Assembly: GCA_964410185.1 (NCBI GenBank)
Contig: CAYPFM010000002.1
Coordinates: 70,047 to 134,046, forward strand
DNA length: 64,000 bases
Source of the DNA: an uncultured Candidatus Saccharibacteria bacterium
Lineage (GTDB): Bacteria > Patescibacteriota > Saccharimonadia > Saccharimonadales > JAUPVS01
Direction: 5' to 3'
Shown here: positions 34,446 through 59,358 of the stretch, piece after piece
Position numbering within the stretch: position 1 is the stretch's first letter
How the letters are laid out: each line of letters starts with the position of its first letter
Translations under genes and position numbers: made by a program
The notes under the pieces: model-generated
Databases searched by the model: none
What the model was told of the DNA's origin: nothing
Seen by the model: only the letters and a program-made list of their open reading frames with translations

Positions 34446-34454
34446 TGTGGATAA
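34446..34454 (-). promoter_or_regulatory. perfect DnaA-box 9-mer (TTATCCACA on the minus strand) upstream of the mraZ promoter
   Basis: The + strand reads cTGTGGATAAc. One of four identical CTGTGGATAA 10-mers in the window. Confidence 0.5.
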
Positions 34455-41889: not shown

Positions 41890-42777
41890 GTGCGAATACG
41901 GCCCACCAAAACCACTCGTCAACCACAACCGACCGCCGCGCCGCGCGGTGTGATTTCGTATAACACCAATCGTGTGGCTGGGGCCGGGAAGGTTGTAAGT
42001 CCCAAGGCCGAACATTGGTGGCAACAGGGGTGGGTAAGAAACCTACCGACGTTTCTGGCACTGGCCGTAATTACCATCAGTGTCTTGTACTGCCTCGGCC
42101 TCTCCACCAATCCAAAAGTTGTCGTATCTACAACAAGTCCACAGGCAGTCGTTTTGCGTGACAAGGCCGAATATCAGCGTGGCGCTCAGCGTATCCTGGA
42201 AGACTCAGCCCTAAGCCGGACCAAGTTCACCGTTAATACCGGTGGTTTTGAACGGGCCTTCCGCGCCGCCTTCCCGGAAGTCGATGATGTTTCCTTGGCG
42301 CTACCGCTGGTGAGTCGGACGCCCATCGTTACGATTAGCACGGCCCAGCCGCAACTACTCCTGACCGCTCAAGGCAAAGTCTATGTGCTCGACAAACGTG
42401 GAACAGCCATCATGATGGCCAATGACCTCAGCTCTTCTATCCGTCAAACCCTCCCCGTGGTTGATGACCAAAGTGGCTTGTCAGTTTCGGTTGGTAAAAC
42501 CGTCCTGCCGGCCGAGCAGATCCAATATATCACCTCTGTTCTGGCCCAGTTTAAGGCCAAGCAAGTGGCTGTCGAAACTATCACGCTCCCGGCCACTGCC
42601 CAAGAGGTAGACATTAAGCCAGCCGGTAAGCCCTACTATGTAAAATTCAGTACCAGCACCGAGGCGAGGGAAGCGGCTGGCGACTACCTGGCTACCAAGC
42701 AGCGCCTTGAACAGACCAACACGACACCAACACAGTATGTCGATGTGCGGGTGCCAGGCCGCGCATACTACCAGTAG
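41890..42777 (+). CDS. ftsQ: cell-division protein FtsQ/DivIB-like
   Basis: 295 aa, GTG start after GGGGAG. N-terminal TM, then POTRA-like and FtsQ-type beta domains. Last gene of the dcw cluster. Confidence 0.65.
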   Translation: MRIRPTKTTRQPQPTAAPRGVISYNTNRVAGAGKVVSPKAEHWWQQGWVRNLPTFLALAVITISVLYCLGLSTNPKVVVSTTSPQAVVLRDKAEYQRGAQRILEDSALSRTKFTVNTGGFERAFRAAFPEVDDVSLALPLVSRTPIVTISTAQPQLLLTAQGKVYVLDKRGTAIMMANDLSSSIRQTLPVVDDQSGLSVSVGKTVLPAEQIQYITSVLAQFKAKQVAVETITLPATAQEVDIKPAGKPYYVKFSTSTEAREAAGDYLATKQRLEQTNTTPTQYVDVRVPGRAYYQ

Positions 42778-42961
42778 TCGCCCCACCACTACTCTCCTAT
42801 GTTCGCAAAGTGTTCACATGTTTGTTTATGTATGATCCAGCAAAAAAACTATACTATGATGGGGAAACGGGCAAATGTCAAAAAAGGCAGGAAAGCGCCC
42901 AAAGCGGGGAAATACATATAAAAGTATAGAAAGGCACGAAAAGCAAATATTGCAAACCGAC

Positions 42962-42970
42962 TGTGGATAA
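42962..42970 (-). promoter_or_regulatory. perfect DnaA box (TTATCCACA on the minus strand)
   Basis: The + strand reads cTGTGGATAAg. Confidence 0.55.
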
Positions 42971-42993
42971 GTCGGGCCGTTGTACAAAATATC

Positions 42994-43002
42994 TGTGGAT
43001 AA
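42994..43002 (-). promoter_or_regulatory. perfect DnaA box (TTATCCACA on the minus strand)
   Basis: The + strand reads cTGTGGATAAa. 32 bp from the previous box, same orientation. Confidence 0.55.
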
Positions 43003-43184
43003 AGCGACGTAGTGGCAAGCCATTCTAAGGGCTTCTGAGAGTGTGTTTGGAGAGGGTTTGAATAGGAACACCAGTTACAATAGAAAGTAGCGCGCAGAAC
43101 GAAGCGAATAGACAAAAACCTTGGTGACTCGAAAATACTTCCCTTTAGCAGGGGTATCACTAATCCTCTTATGTATATAAATAT

Positions 43185-43212
43185 AAGTCGCAAAATATAC
43201 ATTGTGCGACAT
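43185..43212. other. dif-like Xer recombination site candidate (palindromic arms around a 6-bp TGTATA/TATACA core)
   Basis: The minus strand reads ATGTCGCACAA-TGTATA-TTTTGCGACTT. The inner 16 bp CACAATGTATATTTTG match 14/16 to E. coli dif CATAATGTATATTATG. Confidence 0.4.
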
Positions 43213-43414
43213 GATTGCTATGACTGGTTGTGTGTTCTGCTCCGGCTTCTGCCGGCTGGAATTTCTGCCGCTGCTGTTTTTTATTTTGTGTTATTGCGTT
43301 AATTCTCTACTGCTACTGCCCGGGAGCTTTTTTTGGCACTATGTGAGATTGCCTGTTTCCTATTGGCTGTCACTATCGTGTTCGTAATTTGTACAAAGTT
43401 TTTGTGAACAGACT

Positions 43415-44011
43415 TTAGCTGGCTGTGACAGTAGCCCGACTGGCTTGCTGAAGCTCATGGGCTTCGAGTGCTTGTTGGGTGCTTAATGGGTGATGATGAA
43501 GCTCTACGCGGCCACCGTAGATACCTTCCCCTGCACTATCCATACGAAGTGTTAATGGACGATCGTAGGTGCCTTCGGGTACGTCAGTGTGGGCCGCAGC
43601 GTCGGTCAGTCCGTGGATGCTAAAAACACCTTCATCAAAGCTAATCTCACCGTTCCGAAAAGAAAACGCCTCACTACTAAAGGTGACCGCGACTAACTCC
43701 GTATCAACAGGGGTCCAACCAGGGTTGCCGTCACTGACCTTACCTTGTTCGAACGGGTTCACATACTGTCGAAACGGTCGTGGGGTTGGGTTGCCACGGA
43801 CGCGTAAGGAGCTTTTCCACTCTCTGTCGTCGGCTACTTGGCGGTTGTCGAGGCTGAAGCCATAGAAAGCACCGCTGGCGACATTACCGAGTTGAAGGGT
43901 TGGCTGCGACTCCTGGGCAAGGATTTTGCCAAGGAAACCGGCGAGCTCGGGCGAGGGCACCTTGATTCTTAGTAAGTAATCAACAAAGTGGTGCTTCAAA
44001 TCCATAGCCAA
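43415..44011 (-). CDS. hypothetical protein (shares a short xGEG(I/L)Y segment with 46803..47201)
   Basis: 198 aa. No recognisable domain. LTLRMDSAGEGIYGG resembles IEMRLEDS...SDTGEGLYIADG in the 132-aa protein. Confidence 0.5.
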   Translation of the reverse strand: MAMDLKHHFVDYLLRIKVPSPELAGFLGKILAQESQPTLQLGNVASGAFYGFSLDNRQVADDREWKSSLRVRGNPTPRPFRQYVNPFEQGKVSDGNPGWTPVDTELVAVTFSSEAFSFRNGEISFDEGVFSIHGLTDAAAHTDVPEGTYDRPLTLRMDSAGEGIYGGRVELHHHPLSTQQALEAHELQQASRATVTAS

Positions 44012-44079
44012 TACCCCAATTCTAAATTTAGGATAAGTATAATCCTCTGCTTTTCTTTTGTCTAGGATTGGCAGCTACG

Positions 44080-44658
44080 TTAGTAGATTGGTTCAATGTC
44101 GACCAGATGGAGGGCTGGAACCGATGGCCTGGCTGCGCCCCGAAGTCGGCCAAAGATGTATTGGTCGATGCGGCCGATGTCCCGCAGTGGGGATCGGCTA
44201 TGATGAGGGCGGTTTTTGGTGTAGGCCTTAATTTTGCGACCACAGTCTTGCATCATAACTCGTTCCTCAGGCGAAGCCTTTGCCCAGACGGGCTCAATGC
44301 CATAGCCCTCAACGACGGCTACTCGAGCAAGCGTTCGATAATGAGGCGTGCCTTCTGCTTGGAAGGTGTACCATTCGGTCGGTGCGACACTAATACCAGC
44401 GGCGCGGAGGAGCTGGAACTCGTTGTTCGTCTGTTCTAGCAGGGCCTCAATTCCTTCGAGGCTACACGGCGCCGCAACATGCCTTGGGGACTCTCGGAGG
44501 CGGACTTCTCGAACGATGTGACTAAAGCCATCACTAACTTGGGCTTGCATGGCCTCCCGCCTATCCAGCCAAGACTCTTCTCCTTGTACTTCAAACCAGA
44601 CAATCGGCTGATTGGGCCAGGGGGCGCCAACTTCTGCAACCGTGGCTGGTAAATTCAC
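44080..44658 (-). CDS. hypothetical protein, paralog of the core of 45913..46758 (possible kinase-like fold)
   Basis: 192 aa, GTG start. Shared motifs with the 281-aa protein: G-I-x-V-A-P, D-[IV]-x3-D-Q-Y-I, L-V-D. Confidence 0.5.
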   Translation of the reverse strand: MNLPATVAEVGAPWPNQPIVWFEVQGEESWLDRREAMQAQVSDGFSHIVREVRLRESPRHVAAPCSLEGIEALLEQTNNEFQLLRAAGISVAPTEWYTFQAEGTPHYRTLARVAVVEGYGIEPVWAKASPEERVMMQDCGRKIKAYTKNRPHHSRSPLRDIGRIDQYIFGRLRGAARPSVPALHLVDIEPIY

Positions 44659-44665
44659 GGCTTCT

Positions 44666-45700
44666 CTATTCGGCTAGAGCGTAGGTAGCTTTGGCGACGC
44701 GCTTGAACTGGGCTTTGCCCTGCAGGTTCAAAAGGATGGTCGTTTCTTTAACGTGACGGCTTTTAAGGACGCGCTTGACGATTTCATCGCGGTGGAGGGG
44801 TTCGCCTGCCTTTTGGAGGACTTCGGTGATGATATCGGCCACAGTGCCCTTCTCGTAGCCCCATTCCTTTAAGGCGTAGATGCCGCGGCCAATCAGAACG
44901 AAGCGACTATCTTTGATCAGTTCGTTGTGGATGGCTTGGGTGGTGACATCTTTGCGCTTGAATTCACTGCCCTTGATGGCTTCGGAAATCTCATTAAAGT
45001 GGAGGGGCTTCCCTTTTTCGTAAAGAATGACGTAGATTTTGTCACGAATGTTCTTGGGGTTGACCATTGGCCACTTCACTAGGCCCCAGCGACCGTTAAG
45101 GGTGGCTAATTGCTTAGAGGTGCTAGCCAAGGCGGCAACGTGCTTGCTGTCGGTGTCTTTAACAGAGGTGGCAACCTTGTCGATAGAAGTTGGTTCCCCG
45201 CCCTTTTTGATGGCGTCGATAATCTTGGCAACCTGATCTTTCATCTGTTTTTCGGTGTGGAGCTTGGCCAAACCGACAGCGTGGTAGAAGTTGTCGTTTT
45301 CGTCGATAACAGCCAGGTTTGGGCACAGTAAGGTCAGAAAAGCGACGCGGGCTTGGTCGGTGCGGCTGTTGTCTTTGGTGAGCTTGGCACTGAGGTCGCT
45401 GACGCGGCTGACGCCACCCAGTTGCTCAAGTTCGGTTACGAAACGAGCCTGTAGCTCTTTGATGTGTGGCAGGTCCTGTTCAGCGGTACTCTTGAGGCGT
45501 GTGATAACAGCTTTTTCGAGTTGGCGAACGCGTTCGCGTGTGATGCCAAGGAGTTCCCCAATCTGTTCTAGGGTTTCTTTTCGTTCAAACAGGCCAAAAC
45601 GGCGCGCAATGATTTCGCGTTCTCGTTCACGCTCGATAGTTGCTAGAACATCATTAATAATCTGTTCAATATCGAGTGTGGTCGGGGTTTGGTCTGCCAT
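44666..45700 (-). CDS. sigma-70 region-4-like HTH protein with repeated HARE-HTH (RpoE/delta N-terminal-like) domains
   Basis: EIIARRFGLFERKETLEQIGELLGITRERVRQLEKAVITRLK is region 4. I see no region 2. The C-terminal half has 2-3 HARE-HTH-like units (GKPLHFNEISEAI...GRGIYALKEW; GEPLHRDEIVKRV...ATYALA). ATG 45700 is preceded by AAGGAA; the ORF could also start at TTG 45751. Confidence 0.6.
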   Translation of the reverse strand: MADQTPTTLDIEQIINDVLATIEREREREIIARRFGLFERKETLEQIGELLGITRERVRQLEKAVITRLKSTAEQDLPHIKELQARFVTELEQLGGVSRVSDLSAKLTKDNSRTDQARVAFLTLLCPNLAVIDENDNFYHAVGLAKLHTEKQMKDQVAKIIDAIKKGGEPTSIDKVATSVKDTDSKHVAALASTSKQLATLNGRWGLVKWPMVNPKNIRDKIYVILYEKGKPLHFNEISEAIKGSEFKRKDVTTQAIHNELIKDSRFVLIGRGIYALKEWGYEKGTVADIITEVLQKAGEPLHRDEIVKRVLKSRHVKETTILLNLQGKAQFKRVAKATYALAE

Positions 45701-45759
45701 ATCGTATTCCTTGTCTGTTAAGTCATCGGGCGCCCACTCTGCCGTCAACAATTACTAAC

Positions 45760-45788
45760 ATTATAAAACTTTAATTATTAAAAGTCAA
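45760..45788 (-). promoter_or_regulatory. promoter TTGACT-N17-TATAAT for the sigma-r4/HARE-HTH gene
   Basis: The minus strand reads TTGACTtttaataattaaagtttTATAATgttagtaaTTG. Confidence 0.6.
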
Positions 45789-45912
45789 ACGTATGTCTTT
45801 ATGTAGTTATTGTAGCACCAACTGGACTATCGTGCGTGACTATTGCGTGGCAATATTACAACAAAATAGTCTGAACAGATAGCAAGTTGGGGATAAGTTG
45901 GTGGCTTGTTGA

Positions 45913-46758
45913 TTACAGGCTGCGGGTCATGTCGTACAAATGTTCCAAGGCGTGGTTGGCTACTTTCATCCGTAAATCCGCTTCCTCTTCCACCTTGGCG
46001 ATAATTTCGAGGTCGTTGGTGACTTGGGTGTGAGTGGTCGTATCCATGTAGGCATACAGCCCGCCAGTGGTCAGCCAAACATGAAAGATGGTGAACGCGC
46101 CTTCAAAGTTATCACCAAACCGTAAGTGCTCCTCGCCGGTGTCAACAAGGATTGGCTCCCCCTGTTGATTGACGATGTATTGATCAGTTTTGCTGACATC
46201 AAAAAAGAAGGGGTTGTCGGTCGGTTCGGTGCCGGCGAGGTGCTTCAGATAGGTGTCACGCGCGTACTTGCTTAATTTTTGGGTGAGACTGCTGGCTGCC
46301 GCTGTCTTTGCCTCTGTTGGGACATCGGTACTTTCGAACCATTCTTCCAGTTGTGTGCCTGGAACATGCGGACTGATGCGAAGCAGGCTCGGGACACCGT
46401 CGACCTCTGCAACGGCGTGCCAGCGCGGCGCAACAGCAATACCGTAACCTTCTAGGATATCAAGCTTGTTTTCGAACGGCTCCTGTCCTTCTGCCAAGGG
46501 GTCAAGGACGGCACGCTTCAAGCAGGAATAGGCATATTTTCGGTCGTACGATGGTTCGGTTGAGTCGAAGGCCGGGCGATTGTACTTGTCGAGGATGGCT
46601 GCATTTGGGTACAGATGACGCAGCCAGGCTACCGGCTCGCTTTCCGTGCCGTAGAGCGGGCGTACTGGGAACTCCTGACACTCAGAGAGCAGATGGGGCT
46701 CCAGGCTCAGTTCACCGGGCACGGCACGAATAGCGGGAATCTCAACAAGATGTTGCAT
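45913..46758 (-). CDS. hypothetical protein, larger paralog of 44080..44658 (possible kinase-like fold)
   Basis: 281 aa. GYGIAVAPRW, FFDVSKTDQYIV, PILVDTGE. Confidence 0.5.
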   Translation of the reverse strand: MQHLVEIPAIRAVPGELSLEPHLLSECQEFPVRPLYGTESEPVAWLRHLYPNAAILDKYNRPAFDSTEPSYDRKYAYSCLKRAVLDPLAEGQEPFENKLDILEGYGIAVAPRWHAVAEVDGVPSLLRISPHVPGTQLEEWFESTDVPTEAKTAAASSLTQKLSKYARDTYLKHLAGTEPTDNPFFFDVSKTDQYIVNQQGEPILVDTGEEHLRFGDNFEGAFTIFHVWLTTGGLYAYMDTTTHTQVTNDLEIIAKVEEEADLRMKVANHALEHLYDMTRSL

Positions 46759-46766
46759 AAGACAGT

Positions 46767-46775
46767 ATTATAACA
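46767..46775 (-). promoter_or_regulatory. extended -10 box TGTTATAAT; 8 nt before ATG 46758
   Basis: The minus strand reads ttaTGTTATAATactgtcttATG. Confidence 0.55.
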
Positions 46776-46802
46776 TAATAACGTGGCCATCGCCAGTTTG
46801 AT

Positions 46803-47201
46803 TTAAAGACGAGGCTGGGTCAAGATGCAACGTAGGACGGTGCTTCTCGCGTTGGCAATATCAAACACCGTCTCTGCGTAGCGGGCTTCGAGTCCGGCAA
46901 CATTGGCTTCATCAATTCTCTTGGTGGAGTCCATTGCAATTGAGTAGTCCTCTGGTGGACAAGCACCGCACTGGTCACAGGCAATTTTGGCCGCAAAACC
47001 GGTTAGGTTTAGTACGGGTGTTGATTCGCCATCAGCTATGTAGAGCCCCTCGCCGGTGTCGCTCATAACGCGAGCGGCCGGCGAATCTTCTAGGCGCATT
47101 TCAATGACATCTTCGACTTCTCCCTGAGCTTCGACGTCAACATAGAGGCCGCAACGGCGAACACCTTTAATGACTGCTTCAACGGGACGGTAGCGATTCA
47201 T
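46803..47201 (-). CDS. hypothetical protein (CDQCGAC motif)
   Basis: 132 aa. No recognisable domain. Confidence 0.45.
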   Translation of the reverse strand: MNRYRPVEAVIKGVRRCGLYVDVEAQGEVEDVIEMRLEDSPAARVMSDTGEGLYIADGESTPVLNLTGFAAKIACDQCGACPPEDYSIAMDSTKRIDEANVAGLEARYAETVFDIANARSTVLRCILTQPRL

Positions 47202-47207
47202 AAGTTA

Positions 47208-47216
47208 ATTATAACA
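47208..47216 (-). promoter_or_regulatory. extended -10 box TGTTATAAT; 6 nt before ATG 47201
   Basis: The minus strand reads GCTTTTTTATGTTATAATtaacttATG. The same 18-mer GCTTTTTTATGTTATAAT precedes 54178. Confidence 0.55.
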
Positions 47217-47237
47217 TAAAAAAGCAACTAGCGCTAG

Positions 47238-49541
47238 CTACTTCTTCTTGGCAGCGGTTTTGCGCTTGGGGAACTTGCGTCCCTTGCCCTTGGCCGGCGC
47301 GGCGGCGAGGAGTTCTTTACACTCCTTCTCTGTTAGCTCGGCGGGTTCCTTGTCTTTTGGAATCTTGGCGTTCTTCTTGCCGTCGGTTATGTAAGGGCCG
47401 TACTGGCCGTTCAAAACGTCTATACCGCTGTCGAAGCGCTGGATGTACTTGTTGGCTTCTTTTTCGAGCTTTTCTTTGTAAGCAACCAGGGCTTCTTCGA
47501 GGGTAATGGTCAGCGGATCGGCGCCTTTAACAGAGACAAAAAGCTTGTCGACCTGGATGTAGGGGCCAAAACGGCCGATGTTGGCTTTGATCTCTTTGCC
47601 GTCTTCGGTCAGGCCGACGGTGCGCGGCAGTTTAAACATTTCTAGGGCCTGCTCCAGCGTGACTGTTTCCAGGGTGGTGTTGGCCGGCAGCGGCGCGAAG
47701 CGGGGTTTTTCTTCACTTTCGGTCTCGCCCATTTGCAGCATGGCGCCATAGCGGCCATAACGAGCGATGATGGGCTTACCGGACTTAGGGTCTGGGCCTA
47801 ATTCACGGGCCTGTGAGGCCTCTTGGCGGCTGACATCGGCTGCACCCTCGATGAGGGGGTGAAAGTCCTTGTAGAAGTCCTTGAGCATTTGCTGCCACTT
47901 CTCTTTGCCCTCGGCGATGTCATCGAACTCGGCTTCGACCTTGGCGGTAAAGTCGTAATCGAGGACGGTGCCAAAGTGTTTGGTCAAGAAGTCGGTGGTC
48001 ATGTCGGCAATGCCGGTCGGGACCAGCTTATTGCGGTCGGCCCCTGTTATCTCGGTGCGGGTGGCGCTAGTGATAGTGCCCTTCTCTAAGGTAATGGTCT
48101 CAACTTCTCTTTCGACGCCTTCGAGGTCCTTCTTTTCGATATAGCCGCGGCTCTGGATGGTGCTGATAGTCGGTGCATAGGTAGATGGCCGACCGATGCC
48201 CAGCTCTTCTAACTTCTTCACCAAAGCGGCTTCGCTGTAGCGGGCGGCTGATTTGCTGAAGGTTTGGGTGGCGGTCATGCTGTTGAGCGGTAGTTTTTGC
48301 CCCTGTTCCACGGCTGGCAGAATGGTGTCGTCCTTGCCTCCCCCGTAGACCTTAAGGAAGCCATCGAACTGGAGGACTTCACCCTTGGCGATGAAGGCCG
48401 GCTTGGTTGTGCTGGGTTGAATGGTGATTTCGCTCTTTTCCAGCTGGGCGGGCGCCATCTGGCTGGCCAGGGTGCGCCGCCAGATGAGGTCGTACAGCTT
48501 TTGCTGCTGCGCATCGTCACCGAGGTTCTGCCTGCTGAAATCAGTCGGTCGAATGGCTTCGTGTGCCTCCTGGGCACCGGCGGACTTGGTCTTGAAGGTG
48601 CGCAGTTGGTAGTAGTCTTTGCCGTATTGATGCTGAATGTAGTCGGCGGCATTGTTGAGAGCCAGCTGTGACAGGTTGGTGCTGTCGGTACGCATGTAGG
48701 TAATGTGCCCACTTTCGTATAGGCGCTGAGCTAGGGTCATGGTTTGACGAACGCTGTAGCCAAGCCGCAGGGCGGCCGCTTGCTGCAGTGTACTAGTGGT
48801 AAATGGTCCTGATGGGTTGCGGGTGCTGGGCTTGGCCGTCATGTCGGTAACGGTAAATTCGGCCGGCACGCAGTCTTCTAGGAACTTCTGGGCTTCTGCT
48901 TTGGTTGGCAACTTGGTGGCTAATTCGGCTTTCAGTTCCTGGCCTTCAACGTCAAACAAGGCCGCAATCTTATAGGTAACCTCGGCTTCGTGGGCGTTAA
49001 TTTCGCGCTCACGCTCGACGATTAGGCGGACAGCTACAGATTGGACGCGGCCGGCACTCAGGCCGGTTCTTACCTTTTTCCACAAGACGGGCGAAAGCTC
49101 ATAACCAACCAAACGGTCGAGGATGCGACGGGCTTGCTGGGCATCGACCAGATCCTGGTCGACGGTGCGTGGGTTTTCGATGGCGTGCAGGATGGCGGTC
49201 TTGGTGATTTCATGAAAGACAATTCGCTTAGTCGTCTTGGGATCTAGCTTCAGGGCACTGGCCAGATGCCAGGCAATCGCCTCCCCTTCGCGGTCTTCAT
49301 CAGATGCCAACCAGACGGTAGCATCCTTGGCGGCTTTGCGCAGCTCGGCGACGACCTTCTTTTTATCAGCGCTGACTTCGTAGGTAGGCTCGAAGTTATT
49401 GGCGATGTCTATATTAAGACCTTTTTTCGGCAAATCACGGATGTGGCCAAAACTACTTTTGACGGTGTAGTCTTTGCCTAAATATTTTTCGATCGTCTTG
49501 GCTTTCGCCGGACTCTCAACGATTACTAAGTTTTTAGCCAT
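47238..49541 (-). CDS. topA: DNA topoisomerase I (type IA)
   Basis: 767 aa. Toprim N-terminus (LVIVESPAKAKTI, DEDREGEAI), active-site region SGHITYMRTDS, Lys-rich tail. Confidence 0.96.
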   Translation of the reverse strand: MAKNLVIVESPAKAKTIEKYLGKDYTVKSSFGHIRDLPKKGLNIDIANNFEPTYEVSADKKKVVAELRKAAKDATVWLASDEDREGEAIAWHLASALKLDPKTTKRIVFHEITKTAILHAIENPRTVDQDLVDAQQARRILDRLVGYELSPVLWKKVRTGLSAGRVQSVAVRLIVEREREINAHEAEVTYKIAALFDVEGQELKAELATKLPTKAEAQKFLEDCVPAEFTVTDMTAKPSTRNPSGPFTTSTLQQAAALRLGYSVRQTMTLAQRLYESGHITYMRTDSTNLSQLALNNAADYIQHQYGKDYYQLRTFKTKSAGAQEAHEAIRPTDFSRQNLGDDAQQQKLYDLIWRRTLASQMAPAQLEKSEITIQPSTTKPAFIAKGEVLQFDGFLKVYGGGKDDTILPAVEQGQKLPLNSMTATQTFSKSAARYSEAALVKKLEELGIGRPSTYAPTISTIQSRGYIEKKDLEGVEREVETITLEKGTITSATRTEITGADRNKLVPTGIADMTTDFLTKHFGTVLDYDFTAKVEAEFDDIAEGKEKWQQMLKDFYKDFHPLIEGAADVSRQEASQARELGPDPKSGKPIIARYGRYGAMLQMGETESEEKPRFAPLPANTTLETVTLEQALEMFKLPRTVGLTEDGKEIKANIGRFGPYIQVDKLFVSVKGADPLTITLEEALVAYKEKLEKEANKYIQRFDSGIDVLNGQYGPYITDGKKNAKIPKDKEPAELTEKECKELLAAAPAKGKGRKFPKRKTAAKKK

Positions 49542-49584
49542 ATGCGTGATGTCTAGTATACCTTATTAGTGACAAGGCGTAATC

Positions 49585-50250
49585 CTACGGCAATTTTGGC
49601 GACAATGCAAATAAATTAAGAATTTGCTCAGCGTCCTGGACCAGCTGCGCACCTTGGTTGATTAAGTTATGTGTCCCAACGCTGTTGTTACTAAAGATAC
49701 TGCCCGGCACGGCCAAAACTTCCTTGCCCTGATCTAACGCAAACTGAGCGGTGTGCAGGCTGCCGCTTTTCTCGGCCGCCTCAGTAATAAGCACGGCGTG
49801 GCTGAGGCCGGCAATGATGCGGTTGCGGGCGATGAAGTGGTATTTGTGCGGCCTGAGTTGGCCAGGATATTCGCTGACCAGTGCCCCACCCTGTCGCACG
49901 ATAGTTTCCGCCAACCGGCGATGGGTGGCGGGATAGATACTTTCGATACCACCCGGCAATACGGCAATAGTCTTGCCCCCGGCGTCCAGGGTTGCTTGAT
50001 GGGCGACGCTGTCGACTCCTAAGGCCAGCCCGCTTACAATCGGAATACTGGCCCAAGCCACAGTGGCTGTCATCCGCGTTGTAACTTCTCTGCCATATGG
50101 GGTAACCGCCCGGCTCCCCACAATCGCCAGCGTCTTGTACGCCAGTATCTCAGTGTTACCAACGACGTACAGCTTATAGGCGGGTTGCGGCAGCTTTGTT
50201 AGTTGGTGTGGGTAATGTCGGTCACCCGGGATAAGTTCGTGTACCTCCAC
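49585..50250 (-). CDS. dprA: DNA-processing protein DprA (core Rossmann-like domain only)
   Basis: 221 aa, GTG start after AAGGAG. GLALGVDSVAHQATLDAGGKTIAVLPGG and SGSLHTAQFALDQGKEVLAVPG. Confidence 0.85.
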   Translation of the reverse strand: MEVHELIPGDRHYPHQLTKLPQPAYKLYVVGNTEILAYKTLAIVGSRAVTPYGREVTTRMTATVAWASIPIVSGLALGVDSVAHQATLDAGGKTIAVLPGGIESIYPATHRRLAETIVRQGGALVSEYPGQLRPHKYHFIARNRIIAGLSHAVLITEAAEKSGSLHTAQFALDQGKEVLAVPGSIFSNNSVGTHNLINQGAQLVQDAEQILNLFALSPKLP

Positions 50251-50529
50251 GCTCGGCTCCTTTCAGATTGGTGCCTCGCGGGTTTCTGTATATAGCTTAG
50301 CAACAGCTACGATTTTGGGAGCGCAAATTAACCGGTTTTTAATGATTCAGATTAATAAAGTTAATAATCCCACACCGTAGCATTCTTAAAAAACTTAATC
50401 TGAATTCTTACCTTTTGGTTAAATGGTGCTCCAAAATCCATAGCACACCAAAAGGCACTGTAAGAGCCGGCCAACAGAGGTCGAAAACATAATTTAAAGA
50501 AACTAAGTTGCACAAAAAGCAAAATAGTA

Positions 50530-50557
50530 TTGACAAACAACAGAAAGTTGCTAAAAT
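50530..50557 (+). promoter_or_regulatory. orphan promoter TTGACA-N16-(TGC)TAAAAT with no long ORF downstream
   Basis: -35 box at 50530-50535, -10 box at 50552-50557, extended TG at 50549-50550. Confidence 0.55.
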
Positions 50558-50824
50558 AGCAATCCGTAAGCGTAATACTTTACGTTTCGCACCTTTTACC
50601 CCCAATTCTAACAAATTGTTAGATTGTTCTCAGAGCGGCAGCCTAAGTTGTTACCCTCCACTTATCGCAGCACTCGGTGTCAAAACCGAACGCTCTAGAA
50701 CAAACTAATCCCTTTAACAGATCCCGGAACCAGGCTTGCCTGGTCGAGGTCCCCAATTCAAAGTGAGTATTCAAGTATTCTGCGACCTTCGGGTCCAGAG
50801 GCGCACATCTTTAAGGAGTTTTGG

Positions 50825-50902
50825 ATGCTGACGCTTCACTGGGGTGGGTTGAAGGGTGTAATTTGGGGAGAACCTGACATTCTTGGTTCTCCTTTGAAAT
50901 AG
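50825..50902 (+). CDS. candidate 25-aa sORF inside the orphan transcript
   Basis: AAGGAG at 50813-50818, a 6-nt spacer, ATG at 50825. MLTLHWGGLKGVIWGEPDILGSPLK*. The stop abuts the terminator. Confidence 0.25.
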   Translation: MLTLHWGGLKGVIWGEPDILGSPLK

Positions 50903-50941
50903 GCCTCCAGCGGTGCCCACCCCCTCTGGAGGTCTTTTTTT
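50901..50941 (+). terminator. rho-independent terminator
   Basis: AGGCCTCCAG-N15-CTGGAGGTCT (10 bp including one G-U pair) followed by TTTTTTT. Confidence 0.8.
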
Positions 50942-51578
50942 ATACAATAAAACTGCGGGTTTCGGTAGGTAGTTGCCCGCCGTAGATATATTCCACCAAA
51001 AGACTGTTCACCTCTTGTGCTAAGGCCGGGAGGTGTTTTTGTTCATCAGCCGTAAACTTGCCCAAGACGAAATCGGCGCTGTCGGCCTGGCCAGAAAAGT
51101 CATTGGCTATGCCGATGCGGACGCGGCCGGTGGCTGGGCTGCCGAGGGCAATGATCGATTTAACGCCGTTGTGTCCAGCGTGGCCGCCACCGGTACGGAG
51201 ACGGATCTGACCAAACGGGATGTCAATTTCGTCGTGCACGACCACGGTGTCGGCATCACTGACCTTGTAGAAGCGCTGTACGGCCTGTACAGCCTCGCCA
51301 CTGTTGTTCATGAAGGTAGAGGGCTTACAGAGGATAACGCGCGTCTGACCAAGGTTGTGAGTGCTCAGGTGGGCTTTTAAATCCTTCTTATTGGTCCAGG
51401 CTGGAAAGTCGTTTGTTTGGGCAAAGTAGTCCAAGCTGTAAAAACCAACGTTGTGGCGCGTTAATTCATACTCTTTGCCTGGGTTGCCAAGTCCAACGAT
51501 AAGGATGGTTTTGGTGAGTCCAACGCTGTAAAGAGGTGGTTCGATATTGCTGTTTTGCTCACGGACGAATAATCCCAT
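50940..51578 (-). CDS. pth: peptidyl-tRNA hydrolase
   Basis: 212 aa. LIVGLGNPGKEYELTRHNVGF, GHNGVKS. Has an N-terminal extension of about 20 aa relative to typical Pth. Confidence 0.92.
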   Translation of the reverse strand: MGLFVREQNSNIEPPLYSVGLTKTILIVGLGNPGKEYELTRHNVGFYSLDYFAQTNDFPAWTNKKDLKAHLSTHNLGQTRVILCKPSTFMNNSGEAVQAVQRFYKVSDADTVVVHDEIDIPFGQIRLRTGGGHAGHNGVKSIIALGSPATGRVRIGIANDFSGQADSADFVLGKFTADEQKHLPALAQEVNSLLVEYIYGGQLPTETRSFIV

Positions 51579-51593
51579 AGCGTCTAGTATCGG

Positions 51594-52052
51594 TTATTCT
51601 GGGCGATTCAACAAGTAATGCAGCGGGTTGGTGCCTTGCTCCAAAAGGGATACATATGCTTTTGTTCGATAGAGGGCTTCCACTGGGATATCAAAGGTTG
51701 GGTTGATGACATCAGTCTCGTTGGTTTCTTCAACGTTCAATGCGGTTCCTGCATCGATTCCCATATACTCGTCAATGCTAATCACGTCGTCTTCCTCAAT
51801 AGAGTAGCCATAGGTGAGCGCCACCCAATGACCAGTGTGAGCCGAGACGATTCGCAATACCACAAAGCCCTCACTGACGCCTTGCTCGCTAGCGGCTTGA
51901 CTCAACGCTTCCAAATCTTCCTCCAGGCTGTCGAGAGCTGGTGGCGTGAGGGCCTCGGAGAACTCGAGATCAGCTAGCTGGTCGAGTAAGTATTGAAGAA
52001 TAGTGTCGTTATTGACGGGTAGATATTTTACTTCGGAGATTTCGCCTGGCAT
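51594..52052 (-). CDS. acidic hypothetical protein
   Basis: 152 aa, very Asp/Glu-rich. No recognisable domain. Lies between der and pth. Confidence 0.45.
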   Translation of the reverse strand: MPGEISEVKYLPVNNDTILQYLLDQLADLEFSEALTPPALDSLEEDLEALSQAASEQGVSEGFVVLRIVSAHTGHWVALTYGYSIEEDDVISIDEYMGIDAGTALNVEETNETDVINPTFDIPVEALYRTKAYVSLLEQGTNPLHYLLNRPE

Positions 52053-52070
52053 ATCACTAATTTCCTGAAT

Positions 52071-53432
52071 TTATTTAGGAGCGCTGGGATCCCAACGTGA
52101 TTTACGAGGATGAGACTCGTGTTTTTCGATGTACCAAAACTTAATTGGCGAGCCCGTGTAGTCCCACTTTTCGCGCATGGTGCGATCCATGTAGCGCTTG
52201 TAGCTCCAGTGCAGAAACTTGGTGTGGGCGCCAAAGACCTTGAAGCTGGGGTTGGGGTTGTCGTCTTCTTGAACGATGTAGTTGAGCTTGGGGTTGCGGT
52301 TTTTGAGGCCGGCTGGCGGATGGTCATTAACGATTTGTCGTAACCAACGGTTTAGTTCGACGGTGCGAATCTTTTGGTTGCGGCGTTCGTCAATTTCGAG
52401 GGCCAGGTCAAATAGCTTGGCAACATTTTGACCACTGACGCTACTGGTAAAGACCAGCGGTGCCCATGGCAGGAAGGCAAATTCGGTGCGCAAGCGGGCG
52501 GCAATTTGGTCGCGACTGTAGGGGTCTTTATCTTCCAGGCTGTCCCACTTGCTGATAACCAGTACCAGACCCTTGCCGGCTTCTTTCACCATGCCCGCGA
52601 TCTTTTGGTCTAGCTGAGTGCCAACTTCGTTGACGTCCATCAGCATGAAGCAGATATCGGCCTGTTCAATGGCGGACAGGGTGCGGATGACGCTGAAGTG
52701 TTCAATCCCCTTCCCGATCTTACCGCTGCGGCGGATGCCGGCGGTGTCGAGCAGTTCGATTTCCCGCCCTTTGAACTTAACCATGGTGCGGTTGATGTCG
52801 CGGGTGGTACCGGCTACGTCGGCAACGATGGCCTGCTGTTTTTTGGCTAAGGTGTTAAATAGATGAGATTTGCCAACGTTAGGGCGTCCCAGTAGGGCGA
52901 TGCGCAGACGGTCGTCGGCTTCGTTGATGGTGGCTTCGGGAATGACCTGCCCGAGCTTCTCTAACAGCTCTTCGATACCACTGTTCTGGGTGGCACTGGT
53001 CATGATGATGGTTTTGATGCCCAGACCCTGGAACTGAGTGGCCTTGGCGCGGTAGGCTTTGTCGGCCTTGTTGACGACCAGGAAGACGGGTTTTTGGGTC
53101 TTAAGGGCGAGCTTGGCGACGCGGCGGTCTTCTTCGGTAATTTGGAGGTTGGCTTCGATGACGACCCAGATGACGTCGGCACTGTCGGCAGCCTGTAGAA
53201 TCTGTTCTTGAATGGTGAATTCAAAGTCGTCTTCGGGGCTCTTCATACCAGCGGTGTCGACCAGCCAGAAGTCGCGCTCACCAAAGCTGGCCTTGGCCAT
53301 AATACTGTCGCGGGTAGTGCCAGGTTCGTTGGCCACGATCGCTTCACGCCGTTGCAGGATGGCGTTAAACAGGCTCGATTTACCAACATTGGCTCGGCCG
53401 ACAATGGCGACGATAGGAACTTTTTTGCTCAT
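52071..53432 (-). CDS. der: ribosome-biogenesis GTPase Der (EngA)
   Basis: Start at ATG 53432 (MSKKVPIVAIVGRANVGKSSLFN). Second G domain GRPNVGKSHLFN, DTAGI twice, KH-like C-terminus. Confidence 0.93.
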   Translation of the reverse strand: MSKKVPIVAIVGRANVGKSSLFNAILQRREAIVANEPGTTRDSIMAKASFGERDFWLVDTAGMKSPEDDFEFTIQEQILQAADSADVIWVVIEANLQITEEDRRVAKLALKTQKPVFLVVNKADKAYRAKATQFQGLGIKTIIMTSATQNSGIEELLEKLGQVIPEATINEADDRLRIALLGRPNVGKSHLFNTLAKKQQAIVADVAGTTRDINRTMVKFKGREIELLDTAGIRRSGKIGKGIEHFSVIRTLSAIEQADICFMLMDVNEVGTQLDQKIAGMVKEAGKGLVLVISKWDSLEDKDPYSRDQIAARLRTEFAFLPWAPLVFTSSVSGQNVAKLFDLALEIDERRNQKIRTVELNRWLRQIVNDHPPAGLKNRNPKLNYIVQEDDNPNPSFKVFGAHTKFLHWSYKRYMDRTMREKWDYTGSPIKFWYIEKHESHPRKSRWDPSAPK

Positions 53433-53439
53433 TCCTTCT

Positions 53440-53468
53440 ATTATAACAGAGGTACGGCATATTGACAA
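53440..53468 (-). promoter_or_regulatory. promoter TTGTCA-N17-TATAAT; 7 nt before ATG 53432 (der)
   Basis: The minus strand reads TTGTCAatatgccgtacctctgtTATAATagaaggaATG. Confidence 0.6.
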
Positions 53469-53485
53469 CTAAATAAAATAGTTAC

Positions 53486-54178
53486 TTAGATGCGGTTGAG
53501 GTCGAGGGGTAGGCTGTTCGTCAGGTTGGCGCCTTCGAAATCGAGCAGGCCGGCCTGTTGGCAGCCTGTTACGACGATCTTCCAGGTAGCTGGAACGAAG
53601 CGTCGAGCCGGGCAAACATTTGGTTCATCATCGGTCAGGTTGGGGCTCTGGCCATGGCGAAGCGCCCAGGAAGTGGCTTCTTGCTGGGCTACCTGCAGAA
53701 TGAAAGGATTTGGAGCAAAGTGGTTATCACCGGGGTTGTACATGAAAGAGGGTTCGTTCAAAGAGACGCTACCCTTGAGGCCGAACCAGGTTTCGTACTC
53801 TCGATTTTTACCTTGGATCATGTTGGCGATGTGCACAAAGAAGCGAACGGTACGGGCGTCGAGCAGCGCCGTCTCGAGTGTTGCGCTGTCAGGCTTCTGG
53901 ACAGCCTCGGCACAGTATTCGTCATACCCGCCTTTGCAAAGTGCTACTCCTCGGGCGGCAACAGCCAGGCCATGTTTGACCACTTCGTTTGGTAGGCTGG
54001 CCGCGGCGGGTACGCGAGAGAATTGATCAAAGAGCTCCTCGGCTACCTGGGCATACGGGCCAAAATGAGTCTCATCGACGGGTTCTGCAGGTTCGAGGGG
54101 CGTAACCCATGACAAATCAGCAAAGACTGCTTTACAGGCTTCGACTTGAGCGTCAAAACGTTCTTGATTGCCGGACAT
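53486..54178 (-). CDS. hypothetical protein
   Basis: 230 aa. No recognisable domain. Leaderless-type promoter upstream. Confidence 0.5.
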   Translation of the reverse strand: MSGNQERFDAQVEACKAVFADLSWVTPLEPAEPVDETHFGPYAQVAEELFDQFSRVPAAASLPNEVVKHGLAVAARGVALCKGGYDEYCAEAVQKPDSATLETALLDARTVRFFVHIANMIQGKNREYETWFGLKGSVSLNEPSFMYNPGDNHFAPNPFILQVAQQEATSWALRHGQSPNLTDDEPNVCPARRFVPATWKIVVTGCQQAGLLDFEGANLTNSLPLDLNRI

Positions 54179-54185
54179 TCGGCAT

Positions 54186-54194
54186 ATTATAACA
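54186..54194 (-). promoter_or_regulatory. extended -10 box TGTTATAAT; 7 nt before ATG 54178
   Basis: The minus strand reads aGCTTTTTTATGTTATAATatgccgaATG. Confidence 0.55.
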
Positions 54195-54202
54195 TAAAAA
54201 AG

Positions 54203-54856
54203 CTATAACGACACGAAAACTTTGTTGCCGACTTGTTCGAGGTTGTAGTCGCCAAACTGGGTGCGCTTGAGGGCCAGCACCTCGTAGCCACGGGCTTCGA
54301 AGGTTCGCCGGACTTGGCGGTTGCGCCCTTCGTGCATAATGACTTCCCACTCGTGCGGTTTACTGGTTGCTTCGAGCGCCAACTTACTGGGGCCATCTAT
54401 CAATTTAACGCCCTTTTCGATGGCGGCTTTGTCGGCGGGCTGCAAGGGTTTGTTCAGGGTGGCGATGTAGCGCTTCTCTTTTTGGCTACCAGGATGTGCC
54501 AGGTGGTGTGCCAGCGTGCCATCGTTGGTAAGCAAAATGAGACCCGAAGAGTCTTTGTCCAGCCGGCCAATTGACTTTAGGTGGTGCAACTCCTTGGGCA
54601 GGAGGTCATAAATGGTACTACTGCCCTGTCCGTCTCGGCTGCAGACGTAACCGGTTGGCTTATTGAGTAGAATTGTTTGGGTGGCGTTAGGTAATTTAAG
54701 TGACCGACCATTAAACAAAACCTGGTCGTTTTCGTGGACGTTGGTGCCGAGGGTGGCTGTCTGGCCGTTGATTGTGACGCGATGTTGGCTGATAGCCAGA
54801 TCGGCGGCGCGGCGGCTCAGGCCGGTGGCCGAGGCGATGAATTTATTAATGCGCAT
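54203..54856 (-). CDS. rRNA pseudouridine synthase, RsuA/RluB/RluE family (S4 domain + catalytic domain)
   Basis: 217 aa. MRINKFIASATGLSRRAADLAI (S4), GRLDKDSSGLILLTNDG (catalytic Asp motif). Confidence 0.88.
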   Translation of the reverse strand: MRINKFIASATGLSRRAADLAISQHRVTINGQTATLGTNVHENDQVLFNGRSLKLPNATQTILLNKPTGYVCSRDGQGSSTIYDLLPKELHHLKSIGRLDKDSSGLILLTNDGTLAHHLAHPGSQKEKRYIATLNKPLQPADKAAIEKGVKLIDGPSKLALEATSKPHEWEVIMHEGRNRQVRRTFEARGYEVLALKRTQFGDYNLEQVGNKVFVSL

Positions 54857-54859
54857 GGT

Positions 54860-56083
54860 TTAGAGTGCGATGTCGCCAGGATTGGTACTGTCGCCGCCAG
54901 CAGCAGGTGTGATGACGGTGTTGGTTGCGGGTGTGGCAACCGGCTCATCGGCGTTATCTTTGAGATTTTCTTTCTCGAGCAAGGCGTTCAAGTCAACTGA
55001 TGGCGCCAAGGCGTTTTCGGTTGGCTGTAGTACCAGCTTTTTATGCGACGGCGCTTCGACATTGGCACTGCTACCGCTGGCTTCGGCGGCGGCTTCACCT
55101 GACGGGTTTGAAAGAGCATCTTGAGCAGCTGAGGTTGGTGGCGCGCTGACATCAACGGCTGGCGCGCTGGCGGGGGCTGGTGGTGTTGGTTCGGCTGCAG
55201 GTGGTTCAGCGCCGGCACCAGTTGTGCCACTCAAGACAGGATTGCTGGTGATAAAGTCTTGAATTTGCTTTTCGACGCCGTTGGTTTCTTCGGCTCCGGT
55301 TTTGGTTAAATCATTGTTGATTGGCTCGGTTTCTGCTTGCGGCGCAGCTGGCTGTGTGGTGGCTGGAACTGGCGGGGTTGGCGGAACAACCACGGGCTCA
55401 GCTGGTTCTGGAACGGCTGGGGCTGATGGTGTTGGGGTCTCGAGGGGTGCGGCTGGCGCCGGCGCCGGTGCGGGGGTCGTGGCTGCCGGTGGCTCAGTTG
55501 CTGGCGTTGGCGTTGGTGCTGGTGAAGAAGTGGGCGGTGTCGCGGCAGCGCCTGCAGCAGTGAGGCCGACGGGAGGTTCTACTAAGACCGGCTCTTCTGG
55601 TTTGGCGGCGACTGGTTCGGCTGGTGGAGTTGCAACCGGTGGCGCGGCAACGACTGGCACATCAACGGGTGTAGGGCTTGCCGCCGTGCTGACAGTATCG
55701 GTCGCGGATGCGCTGATGTCACCCAAGACTTCGTGGGCAACCTTAATGACATCTTCCAGGGTGACCTGTGATTTGACGAGGTAACGGTCGGCACCGAGCT
55801 TTTCGGCTCGAGAGCGGTCTTCGGCCTGGCCAAGCGCGGTCATCATGATGACTTTGGTGTTCTTGGTTTCGGGGGTGGCGCGGAGAATATCAAGCATATC
55901 AAAACCGCTAATTTTAGGCATCATAACGTCCGAAATAATGAGGTCTGGGCGCTCCTTGACGGCCAGCGCGAGCGCTTCCTCGCCATCGTGGGCCGAGACA
56001 ATCTCGTATCCCTCGGCAACTAAACGAGCATCGTAGATTTCACGGAGGTTGTTATCATCTTCGACGAGCATTACTTTTGGCAT
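54860..56083 (-). CDS. response-regulator receiver fused to a Pro/Ala/Thr-rich low-complexity tail of about 280 aa (no output domain)
   Basis: 407 aa. VMLVEDD, LIISDVMMP, MTAL, LVKSQ. Beyond that there is only PAPT-rich sequence. Confidence 0.8.
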   Translation of the reverse strand: MPKVMLVEDDNNLREIYDARLVAEGYEIVSAHDGEEALALAVKERPDLIISDVMMPKISGFDMLDILRATPETKNTKVIMMTALGQAEDRSRAEKLGADRYLVKSQVTLEDVIKVAHEVLGDISASATDTVSTAASPTPVDVPVVAAPPVATPPAEPVAAKPEEPVLVEPPVGLTAAGAAATPPTSSPAPTPTPATEPPAATTPAPAPAPAAPLETPTPSAPAVPEPAEPVVVPPTPPVPATTQPAAPQAETEPINNDLTKTGAEETNGVEKQIQDFITSNPVLSGTTGAGAEPPAAEPTPPAPASAPAVDVSAPPTSAAQDALSNPSGEAAAEASGSSANVEAPSHKKLVLQPTENALAPSVDLNALLEKENLKDNADEPVATPATNTVITPAAGGDSTNPGDIAL

Positions 56084-56139
56084 TGATTGATTCCTTGTTT
56101 GCGCGAGTTATAACGCGGTTATGGTTTGTTGCAATTGTA

Positions 56140-57750: not shown

Positions 57751-57878
57751 GAATATGTGGAGTTGTACAATCCTTTACCATAACCATTATGTCATGCTCC
57801 TCTGTTCGGGGCAACCGCCGCGGCTGGCTGGAGTATTGTCGTTTCACCTCTGTTGTGATAAGATGTTGCGGTCGTTAC

Positions 57879-57953
57879 GGTCTCTTCGTCTAACGGTTAG
57901 GACACCAGGTTCTCATCCTGGCAATACGGGTTCGATTCCCGTAGAGATCACCA
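57879..57953 (+). tRNA. tRNA-Glu (anticodon CUC), CCA encoded
   Basis: GGTCTCT-TC-GTCT..AGGAC-A-CCAGG-TTCTCAT-CCTGG-CAAT-ACGGG-TTCGATT-CCCGT-AGAGATC-A-CCA. The D arm resembles E. coli tRNA-Glu (TTCGTCTA...AGGACAC). Confidence 0.9.
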
Positions 57954-57993
57954 ATCTAAAAGCCCCAGCTCGTCTGGGGTTTTTAGATTGGTG
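57949..57993 (+). terminator. 20-bp hairpin/terminator that includes the tRNA 3' end
   Basis: CACCAATCTAAAAGCCCCAG-ctcgt-CTGGGGTTTTTAGATTGGTG. The core GCCCCAG/CTGGGG plus a T5 run acts as a terminator. Confidence 0.75.
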
Positions 57994-58139
57994 CTTTCAC
58001 GTCGTGAAAGTCGAACCCGTGGGTTCGTAGACAAGGAGTGCGCGCAGAAGTTTACTTCGAGCACGCGACGCAGGCGCAAGCCTGAAAGGCTTATCCCCGT
58101 AGTTCAATTTCTCGTGCTATGCCCACGGAGCAAATTTGA

Positions 58140-58778
58140 TTAGCGGATTTTGAAGACGTAGGTGGCCGTTCGCCACAGGCGGGTTAGGCAGTATAAGCAG
58201 ACAGCTATAAGTGCCCAGCCAGTCAGCGCGAATTTGTAGGTGCCAATTTTTTGATAGCTGCCGATGGTGATGGCGGCCAGGCTGTTGGCGAGCGGTAGCG
58301 CTACAACTAGGAAGACAAGTAAGAAAATAATCAGCACGAACCAGGCACAGACCAAGTAGGCGTAATGAGCGATTTTTGAGTGCCAGTAGCCTTCCCGCCC
58401 GGCGGACTGGACGTAATTGCTGGCTTCGACATCTTCTTTGGCTTGGTGGTAGGTACTCTGAACCGACCAGACAATCATGTACGCAATCGAACCAATGAAG
58501 GCCCAGACCACCAAAACGGCCAGCTTGCCAAAGATGTCTTGGTGTAGGTAGTTGGTTACGAGATCGAAGTGAGGTTGCAGGGTTTGGCTGGCGGTTTGTG
58601 GACTGACTTGCGCGCTATTGATAGCTGTTTCCCAGAGCAAACGGGAGTTGCCAATGAGCAGAATAATTAGACTAGCCCCTGCAAGGGCCACGACTTCCAC
58701 CCACGACGGCACTAAAAATCTGCCAAAGGCGTGATCAGTTTGGCTGTCGTTAAAGCCGGTTTGAGCAGGCTGCTTCAT
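58140..58778 (-). CDS. polytopic membrane protein (unknown function)
   Basis: Start chosen at in-frame ATG 58778 (MKQPAQTGF), which forms an ATGA overlap with the upstream gene stop. 4-5 TM helices. Confidence 0.5.
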   Translation of the reverse strand: MKQPAQTGFNDSQTDHAFGRFLVPSWVEVVALAGASLIILLIGNSRLLWETAINSAQVSPQTASQTLQPHFDLVTNYLHQDIFGKLAVLVVWAFIGSIAYMIVWSVQSTYHQAKEDVEASNYVQSAGREGYWHSKIAHYAYLVCAWFVLIIFLLVFLVVALPLANSLAAITIGSYQKIGTYKFALTGWALIAVCLYCLTRLWRTATYVFKIR

Positions 58779-59349: not shown

Positions 59350-59358
59350 TGTGGATAA
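59350..59358 (-). promoter_or_regulatory. perfect DnaA-box 9-mer (TTATCCACA on the minus strand) upstream of 59425
   Basis: The + strand reads cTGTGGATAAg. Fourth copy of the CTGTGGATAA 10-mer. Confidence 0.45.

Follow-up and report, generated by a model that had tools for sequence, protein, structure and literature searches.

A conserved 28-bp sequence of Saccharimonadales, probably an Xer-type, dif-like site exploited by filamentous phages

Introduction

The XerCD/dif system of E. coli and B. subtilis works on a site of 28 bp, in which two 11-bp inverted arms flank a 6-bp core, and a classical dif needs no conserved flanking module. Other systems use one tyrosine recombinase and a more symmetric site, namely XerH/difH in Helicobacter and Campylobacter, XerS/difSL in streptococci and lactococci, and XerA/dif in archaea. 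Of these, difSL and difH adjoin the genes of their recombinases. Host sites of this kind are used by the IMEX, which include CTXphi, VGJphi and TLCphi of Vibrio, Cf1c/phiLf of Xanthomonas and the gonococcal genetic island. The hallmark of IMEX is an integrase-less filamentous phage sitting at a 28-bp host site, with one perfect copy of the site regenerated. On plasmids, psi of pSC101 is served by a box for ArcA, an OmpR-family protein, with the layout TGTTA-N6-TGTTA.

Our full-text literature searches found no dif site, Xer recombination or Xer-exploiting phage described in Saccharibacteria or other Patescibacteria. Here we analysed a 28-mer in a Saccharibacterial stretch of 64 kb, the whole of which is called the window below. 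This 28-mer shares the length and the 11-6-11 layout of the XerCD/dif sites. A preliminary description had proposed it as a candidate dif-like Xer site, consistent with a replication terminus. Its dif-like Xer nature is strongly supported by conservation, prophage junctions and half-sites, but a place at a terminus finds no support in skew and synteny.

Results

Sequence and layout of the 28-mer

The minus strand at 43185-43212 of the window reads ATGTCGCACAATGTATATTTTGCGACTT, which divides into arms and core as ATGTCGCACAA-TGTATA-TTTTGCGACTT. The layout proposed before, two 11-bp arms that are 9/11 palindromic around a 6-bp core on the minus strand, agrees with the sequence, and the core TGTATA on one strand is that of E. 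coli dif. The 28-mer was also expected to be unique, and it is single in the 64-kb window even at 3 mismatches; a search for its 24-bp core that tolerated 7 mismatches found no second copy there either. The features of the site and its surroundings are listed in Table 1.

Table 1. Position and properties of the site, the module around it and the adjoining FtsQ-like gene in the window.
Feature	Position	Strand	Remarks
Core recombination site, 28 bp	43185..43212	.	Plus strand AAGTCGCAAAA-TATACA-TTGTGCGACAT; unique, kept in relatives, limits coincide with the prophage junctions
Left arm, half-site GTCGYAAAA	43185..43195	+	Replaced by phage sequence in the hybrid attR
Central region TATACA (minus strand TGTATA)	43196..43201	+	Covered by the 19-bp attL/attR duplication
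Right arm TTGTGCGACAT (minus-strand half-site GTCGYACAA)	43202..43212	+	Identical copy in phage attP sites
Conserved noncoding module holding the site	42778..43414	.	Whole 637-bp gap from the FtsQ-like gene to the next gene
Direct repeat TGTTCG-N5-TGTTCA, left module edge	42800..42816	+	Enriched at -450..-330 from the site, about 85/105 loci among the matches listed
Degenerate second TGTTCG repeat, right module edge	43379..43396	+	Same orientation; enriched at +175..+250
Two perfect DnaA boxes TTATCCACA	42962-42970, 42994-43002	-	32 bp apart, 190-250 bp from the site
FtsQ/DivIB-like gene, 295 aa, last of the dcw cluster	41890..42777	+	Identified by position and C-terminal YIDVRxxGRAYYK motif

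The resemblance to E. coli dif had been offered as a clue. Its count of 18/28 was reproduced, but it is at chance level, as 68% of shuffled windows (68-70%) hold at least one match of 18/28 or better. The match to B. subtilis dif is 17/28, and that to the canonical dif consensus, with its conserved XerD arm TTATGTnAAnT (i.e. TTATGTTAAAT), is no better than chance. Sites of the 11-6-11 type with at least 9/11 paired arm bases number 10 in the window, against 7.9 ± 2.8 expected. Within the window sequence alone, neither the dif match nor the palindrome is above chance, and the significance of the 28-mer comes entirely from the comparison across genomes.

Conservation in related genomes

A genome scan by MurG alone reached only distant relatives with 38-40% identity. 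Two loci obtained in this way (L002 and L005) are syntenic with the window and have the 28-mer in the same place with 2-3 mismatches (25-26/28 identical). Three further organisms were reached via the neighbouring sigma-like protein, the motif having played no part in their retrieval, and the site is present in all three. All five organisms sampled without the motif, by MurG or by the sigma-like protein, therefore carry the site; TATACA is invariant in them, and the only variable positions of the 28-mer are 1, 7, 22, 27 and 28.

A metagenome scan with the exact 22-mer pattern TCGNAAAATATACATTGTGCGA gave at least 120 contigs, each of which contains the 28-mer once. Among the matches listed, about 125 related loci have one copy apiece, and the MurG proteins of these loci are 31-54% identical to that of the window. 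The clade consensus of the site is RAGTCGYAAAA-TATACA-TTGTRCGACRY. In relatives, position 7 of the left arm is C or T and position 22 of the right arm is G or A. The comparison with relatives that had been proposed thus speaks for the site, since the 28-mer is kept at the equivalent locus, singly per locus and order-wide. Its conservation across the clade is far beyond neutral expectation.

Phage insertions at the site

One contig from our scan of viral contigs (L130) was found by BLAST to be the sequence of a host contig (L013) with an insert of 5.48 kb. Positions 922-1352 of L130 match 1-431 of L013, and positions 6843-7421 match 413-991, both at 100% identity. On the left side the host identity runs to base 28 of the site, and on the right side it begins again from base 10. 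The attL, AAGTCGCAAAATATACATTGTGCGACAT, is a perfect site (AAGTCGCAAAA-TATACA-TTGTGCGACAT), and the attR, CAATATCGCAATATACATTGTGCGACAT, is a hybrid one (CAATATCGCAA-TATACA-TTGTGCGACAT). The 19 bp common to both are AA, the core and the right arm, and the stretch marked off by the junctions is exactly 28 bp.

By its predicted genes, which code for a rolling-circle Rep (PF23343, phrog_3419), a Zot-type assembly ATPase (PF05707, phrog_197) and several small proteins resembling coat proteins, the insert is a filamentous phage (inovirus). No recombinase gene was found in the complete 5.48 kb between attL and attR. Because a complete inovirus without a recombinase is inserted here, an enzyme of the host must recombine this exact sequence.

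The flank of another host adjoins a related inovirus (L142/L021), whose Rep and Zot have 62% amino-acid identity, and the host identity starts at the same base as in L130. In a third pair (L015/L103) the right flanks are 99.6% identical and the left flanks are not common; within the site only the left arm differs. These junctions demonstrate, at the level of sequence, that integrase-less filamentous phages insert at the 28-mer, and their pattern is the signature of IMEX, which would here depend on the host Xer. For Saccharibacteria the 28-mer is a genuine target of site-specific recombination, and its conservation is deep.

In S. epibionticum ML1 the FtsQ-like gene ends at 263,648 and is followed by a 556-bp gap. 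Past this gap lie 5.4 kb of small ORFs (SEML1_0276-0285; 264,205-269,609), which are non-core and non-essential (PMC10633639 Table S1), and then minus-strand genes. In size and position the block resembles the L130 inovirus; it is probably an IMEX, and the strain that carries it is cultivated and can be transformed.

The sequence AATATACATTGTGCGACNT occurs in 26 viral contigs, where a rough estimate gives about one expected. TATACA is invariant in these contigs too, although the retrieval pattern for all 26 already contained the hexamer, and on the left side the arm either varies or is symmetric (ATGTCGNACAA). Several of the 26 are tailed phages in which the site is beside terS/terL. The tailed-phage contigs that carry a dif-like site (L131 at 759-786, L152, L139, L143, L144, L154, L136 and L145) represent three different terminase families, and the site is placed just upstream of, or between, terS and terL. 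Their arms are frequently perfectly symmetric, ATGTCGCACAA-TATACA-TTGTGCGACGT, and these copies may be attP sites, ends of prophages or sites of dimer resolution. A left-half pattern was also followed in viral contigs, but its main family lay inside a 351-aa ORF, probably by chance, and was dropped.

Candidate recombinase

The 64-kb window contains no recombinase or Xer gene, and a crude motif scan of about 0.8 Mb of related loci found no recombinase adjoining the site. The annotation of the closed T. rhizospherense genome contains exactly one integrase-family gene, a 306-aa XerC (K03733) at 1,324,367, and includes a full-length FtsK and no XerD (PMC6031116 supplement). S. epibionticum ML1 has the XerC-like SEML1_0117 (PMC10633639 supplement). 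Xer genes had been expected elsewhere in the genome; closed relatives encode one XerC-family gene together with FtsK (PMC6031116 and PMC10633639 supplements). In T. rhizospherense, xerC is about 144 kb from the syntenic junction. A single recombinase agrees well with two half-sites that are nearly identical, and we infer that this XerC would act on the site.

The noncoding module and its neighbours

In relatives the module around the site is 575-850 bp long. Its alignment in a fast mode of MAFFT gave the block order TGTTCG repeat, A-runs, DnaA box block, CCCCT..AGGGG, 28-mer, T-runs, TGTTCG repeat, in which the A-runs are left of the site, the T-runs right of it, and the CCCCT..AGGGG element about 50 bp to its left. 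A conserved noncoding module of such length is unusual for streamlined CPR genomes. No conserved ORF was found in the gap on either strand, and a small protein gene was rejected there because ORF lengths and starts differ among relatives.

The repeats at both edges read TGTTCG-N5-TGTTCR in relatives, with a spacing of 11 bp and both in the same orientation. Direct repeats with 11-bp spacing are typical of the boxes of OmpR-family response regulators. In relatives the consensus DnaA box, TTWTNCACA, occurs exactly once, and its strand is invariably the minus strand (67/69 loci, among the matches listed). It is found at -300..-150 from the site, in the same orientation as the boxes of the window, inside a longer conserved block, cGTGAAAAAGCAAATATTTTCACGACATAACTGTGGAWAAGTCAAATAGTGT. 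The window as a whole contains four perfect DnaA boxes against about 0.5 expected. The two outside the module are at 34446-34454 and 59350-59358; of these two, one precedes mraW in a gap of 900 bp and the other is in an intergenic region between divergent genes.

The site lies 360-600 bp past the FtsQ-like gene in nearly all of the matches listed that have enough flank, and this context downstream of FtsQ is found in about 90% of the metagenome matches listed. The 3′ end of the FtsQ-like gene is the constant neighbour of the module (86 loci, among the matches listed). In a few lineages the module has another context, following for example a short FtsQ-like gene preceded by the genes of pyruvate kinase and phosphoglycerate kinase, or ruvB. 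The next gene on the other side is sometimes co-directional. The distance from the site to the convergent sigma-like gene and topA ranges from 215 bp to about 4 kb among the matches listed.

The sigma-like protein, at 44666-45751 on the minus strand of the window, has 345-361 aa, with a Sigma70 region 4 HTH and a HARE-HTH domain. It shows 65-95% identity in Saccharimonadales, is nearly always encoded beside topA and near the site, and is named RNA polymerase delta subunit or sigma-like depending on the source. Its named homologues assign the organism of the window to Candidatus Saccharimonadales (Saccharibacteria, Patescibacteria/CPR). In one lineage, an IS1595-family transposase and several small ORFs are found between topA and the sigma-like gene (L166 6485-7405 and L167 3839-4759), which indicates that the right side of the junction is a variable region. 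A minus-strand protein of about 880-1020 aa is encoded between the module and the sigma-like gene in many lineages (L020, L028, L035, L058, L070, L076, L079, L100 and L103).

Position on the chromosome

The genes of the window do converge on the site, as had been pointed out in favour of a terminus. Plus-strand genes occupy 1-42777, the last of them being mraW, ftsI, mraY, ftsW, murG and the 295-aa gene, and minus-strand genes occupy 43415-59326, including those of the Sigma70_r4/HARE-HTH protein, topA, dprA, pth and der. However, this convergence is only local. The GC skew of the window has no peak at the site; its cumulative minimum is near 16 kb and the curve is rising through the site.

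T. rhizospherense has dnaN and dnaA at 0.2-2.9 kb, and the published skew puts its origin at 1,201 bp and its terminus at 757,370 bp. Its junction has the order topA, sigma-like gene, 192-codon ORF, 629-bp gap, FtsQ-like gene and murG. Homologues of the 192-aa neighbour were four proteins, none of them from T. rhizospherense. The junction lies at 1,180.3-1,180.9 kb; its distance to dnaA is 270 kb and that to the skew terminus about 420 kb. In S. epibionticum ML1 the junction is 264 kb away from dnaA, which has position 1, so that the distance is 264-270 kb in these two distant relatives. In both genomes the motif was placed by synteny and gap size alone.

We also sampled the gene strands of T. 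rhizospherense. Plus-strand genes make up 84% at 294-330 kb and 93% at 726-772 kb; minus-strand genes make up 72% at 848-882 kb; and the share of plus-strand genes is again 67% at 1,058-1,100 kb and 76% at 1,144-1,180 kb, before 80% minus-strand genes at 1,226-1,276 kb. These samples indicate a flip of orientation near 0.8 Mb, in agreement with the skew, and make the junction a local convergence within one replichore. The first samples from this genome had suggested the junction as the global convergence point, which the 72% minus-strand genes at 848-882 kb ruled out. With the junction at 1.18 Mb, the skew terminus at 757 kb and the flip near 0.8 Mb, placement of the site at the terminus is not supported, and the site does not appear to mark it.

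The block next to the junction in T. rhizospherense, at 1,058-1,180 kb, extends over at least 120 kb from umuC to topA and is syntenic with 43-64 kb of the window. Judged by the published skew terminus, it is mostly head-on to replication (PMC6031116 supplement).

GC skew at fourfold-degenerate sites was determined for about 110 loci and is -0.01 for the genes left of the site and -0.37 for those right of it. Among the genes of the window it ranges from +0.3 to -0.66 and tracks gene type. We therefore rejected it as a gauge of fork direction, because it is confounded by codon preference. The coding strands of the window have C over G at fourfold sites (to -0.66), most strongly in housekeeping genes and near zero in those of membrane proteins. 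This bias indicates that local GC skew follows the orientation and type of genes and not replication.

Discussion

Our preferred reading, to which we give a probability of roughly three in four, is that Saccharimonadales have in the 28-mer their chromosomal Xer-type, dif-like site, on which a single recombinase would act and which filamentous phages exploit. The 6-bp TATACA lies between two inverted half-sites, in which GTCGYA continues with AAA in one and CAA in the other. The single XerC-family tyrosine recombinase of the host would bind both arms, and the strands would be exchanged at the borders of the central region, TATACA being the presumed zone of strand exchange. The normal job of the site would likely be the resolution of chromosome dimers with FtsK. 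The phages have a 19-bp copy of AA, core and right arm, and their integration produces a perfect attL and a hybrid attR.

A bolder version of this reading, to which we give rather low odds, is that the only Xer site of Saccharibacteria lies off the terminus, about 265-270 kb from oriC after the division cluster, that its positioning is independent of FtsK, and that the module, with its TGTTCG repeats of the response-regulator type, DnaA box and A and T tracts, provides accessory sequences as in psi and cer. This last role of the module is a guess by analogy. If the version were true, a chromosomal system of dimer resolution or recombination would follow a plasmid-like logic, perhaps coupled to DnaA or division.

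The alternative that survives best, improbable as we consider it, is that the conserved palindrome has another role, as the operator of a dimeric regulator or another DNA-protein site, and that phages use it as an unchanging attB. tRNA genes are phage targets in a similar way. The DnaA box and TGTTCG repeats of the module would suit such a role, as would the position of the palindrome off the skew terminus in a closed relative, by synteny, and the many tailed-phage contigs with the site could have integrases outside the sequenced stretch. But the complete 5.48-kb inovirus without a recombinase needs a host enzyme acting on an exact sequence, the junctions respect the 11-6-11 layout, invariance of 24 bp over an order is unusual for operators, and the sole annotated tyrosine recombinase of T. 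rhizospherense is Xer-like.

The variation within the arms bears on whether the site works as DNA or as RNA. Positions 7 (C/T) and 22 (G/A) are mirror partners, found in the combinations C-G, T-G and C-A, and they change singly and not together. Since they vary independently, each arm read on its own strand is GTCGYA, which is how protein half-sites behave. If a small noncoding RNA were transcribed from the gap, the palindrome could be its 5′ hairpin or an element close to its promoter. In favour of this, the palindrome folds as a hairpin, an AT-rich stretch immediately precedes it, T-runs follow it at 50-125 nt on the plus strand, and the change between C and T at position 7 keeps a G-U pair on that strand. 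But G-to-A at position 22 breaks the pair on the plus strand and the variants of position 7 break it on the minus strand. The sole variable stem pair thus changes one side at a time and is mispaired on either strand, and a hairpin RNA of either strand would be mismatched in a sizeable share of the genomes. Rfam gave no match for the gap at the gathering threshold nor at E<=10, and single-sequence folds were no better than those of shuffles (z about -1.2). A -10 box (TAnnnT) is shared at a given position by no more than 38% of loci, and hairpins resembling terminators occur in 4-11%. An RNA gene would also leave the recombination junctions unexplained. With no Rfam family, an ordinary fold, no steady -10 box or terminator and no covariation, a noncoding RNA was rejected as very unlikely.

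We give slightly less credence still to the gap being a replication origin or a locus of DnaA control, with the palindrome in an unwinding element. The two perfect DnaA boxes near the site, 32 bp apart, the box of fixed orientation in the relatives and the A-tracts and T-tracts at the flanks are all in its favour. However, only one or two boxes are present, the genes converge on the gap and do not diverge from it, and dnaA and dnaN are 264-270 kb from the junction in closed relatives, with the skew origin of T. rhizospherense beside them. On these grounds oriC was rejected, and the prophage junctions inside the 28-mer would also go unexplained. Equally remote is the nicking of the palindrome hairpin by a phage HUH rolling-circle Rep that would insert the phage, for although an HUH-type Rep gene is present in the prophages and the site is able to fold into a hairpin, this would explain neither the order-wide conservation in hosts, nor the 19-bp attL/attR duplication with one arm swapped, nor the same sequence in tailed phages with unrelated gene sets.

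As an Xer-type, dif-like site, which is our preferred reading, the 28-mer would give a large radiation of uncultured bacteria a defined site of 28 bp and explain where the 'cryptic' inoviruses of Saccharibacteria integrate. It would also be of practical use, since genetic tools for Southlakia and Nanosynbacter, both transformable now, could dock at a point that is natural and conserved. If its position off the terminus holds, the rule that ties dif to the skew switch is called into question, and the link between Xer, FtsK and chromosome layout becomes testable in a minimal bacterium.

Beyond the common layout, the site resembles XerCD/dif in its single copy per locus examined, its lack of linkage to the recombinase gene, its strong conservation in the clade and the presence of FtsK in relatives. 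It differs in that its arms have no above-chance match to the XerC and XerD arms and are both the same half-site, in that the closed relatives have one Xer gene and not two, in its location off the GC-skew switch, by synteny, and in the conserved noncoding module in which it sits. The single-recombinase Xer systems are alike in having one Xer gene, but the Saccharibacterial site has no recombinase nearby and the sequences are unrelated.

With cer of ColE1 and psi of pSC101 it shares the combination of an Xer core site and a few hundred bp of conserved flank. However, the accessory sequences of cer and psi are within about 180 bp on one side, whereas the Saccharibacterial site is chromosomal and has repeats to its left and right, at distances of about 400 and 190 bp. 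The TGTTCG-N5-TGTTCR repeats resemble the ArcA box of psi in layout, a comparison that serves as a lead only.

The comparison with IMEX concerns the phages. The hosts here are Saccharibacteria (Patescibacteria/CPR), tailed-phage contigs carry the site too, and the dependence on Xer would be the same as in the known IMEX if our reading is right. As in those elements, the filamentous phages are integrase-less, their dif-like attP has one good and one degenerate arm, and integration leaves one functional and one hybrid site.
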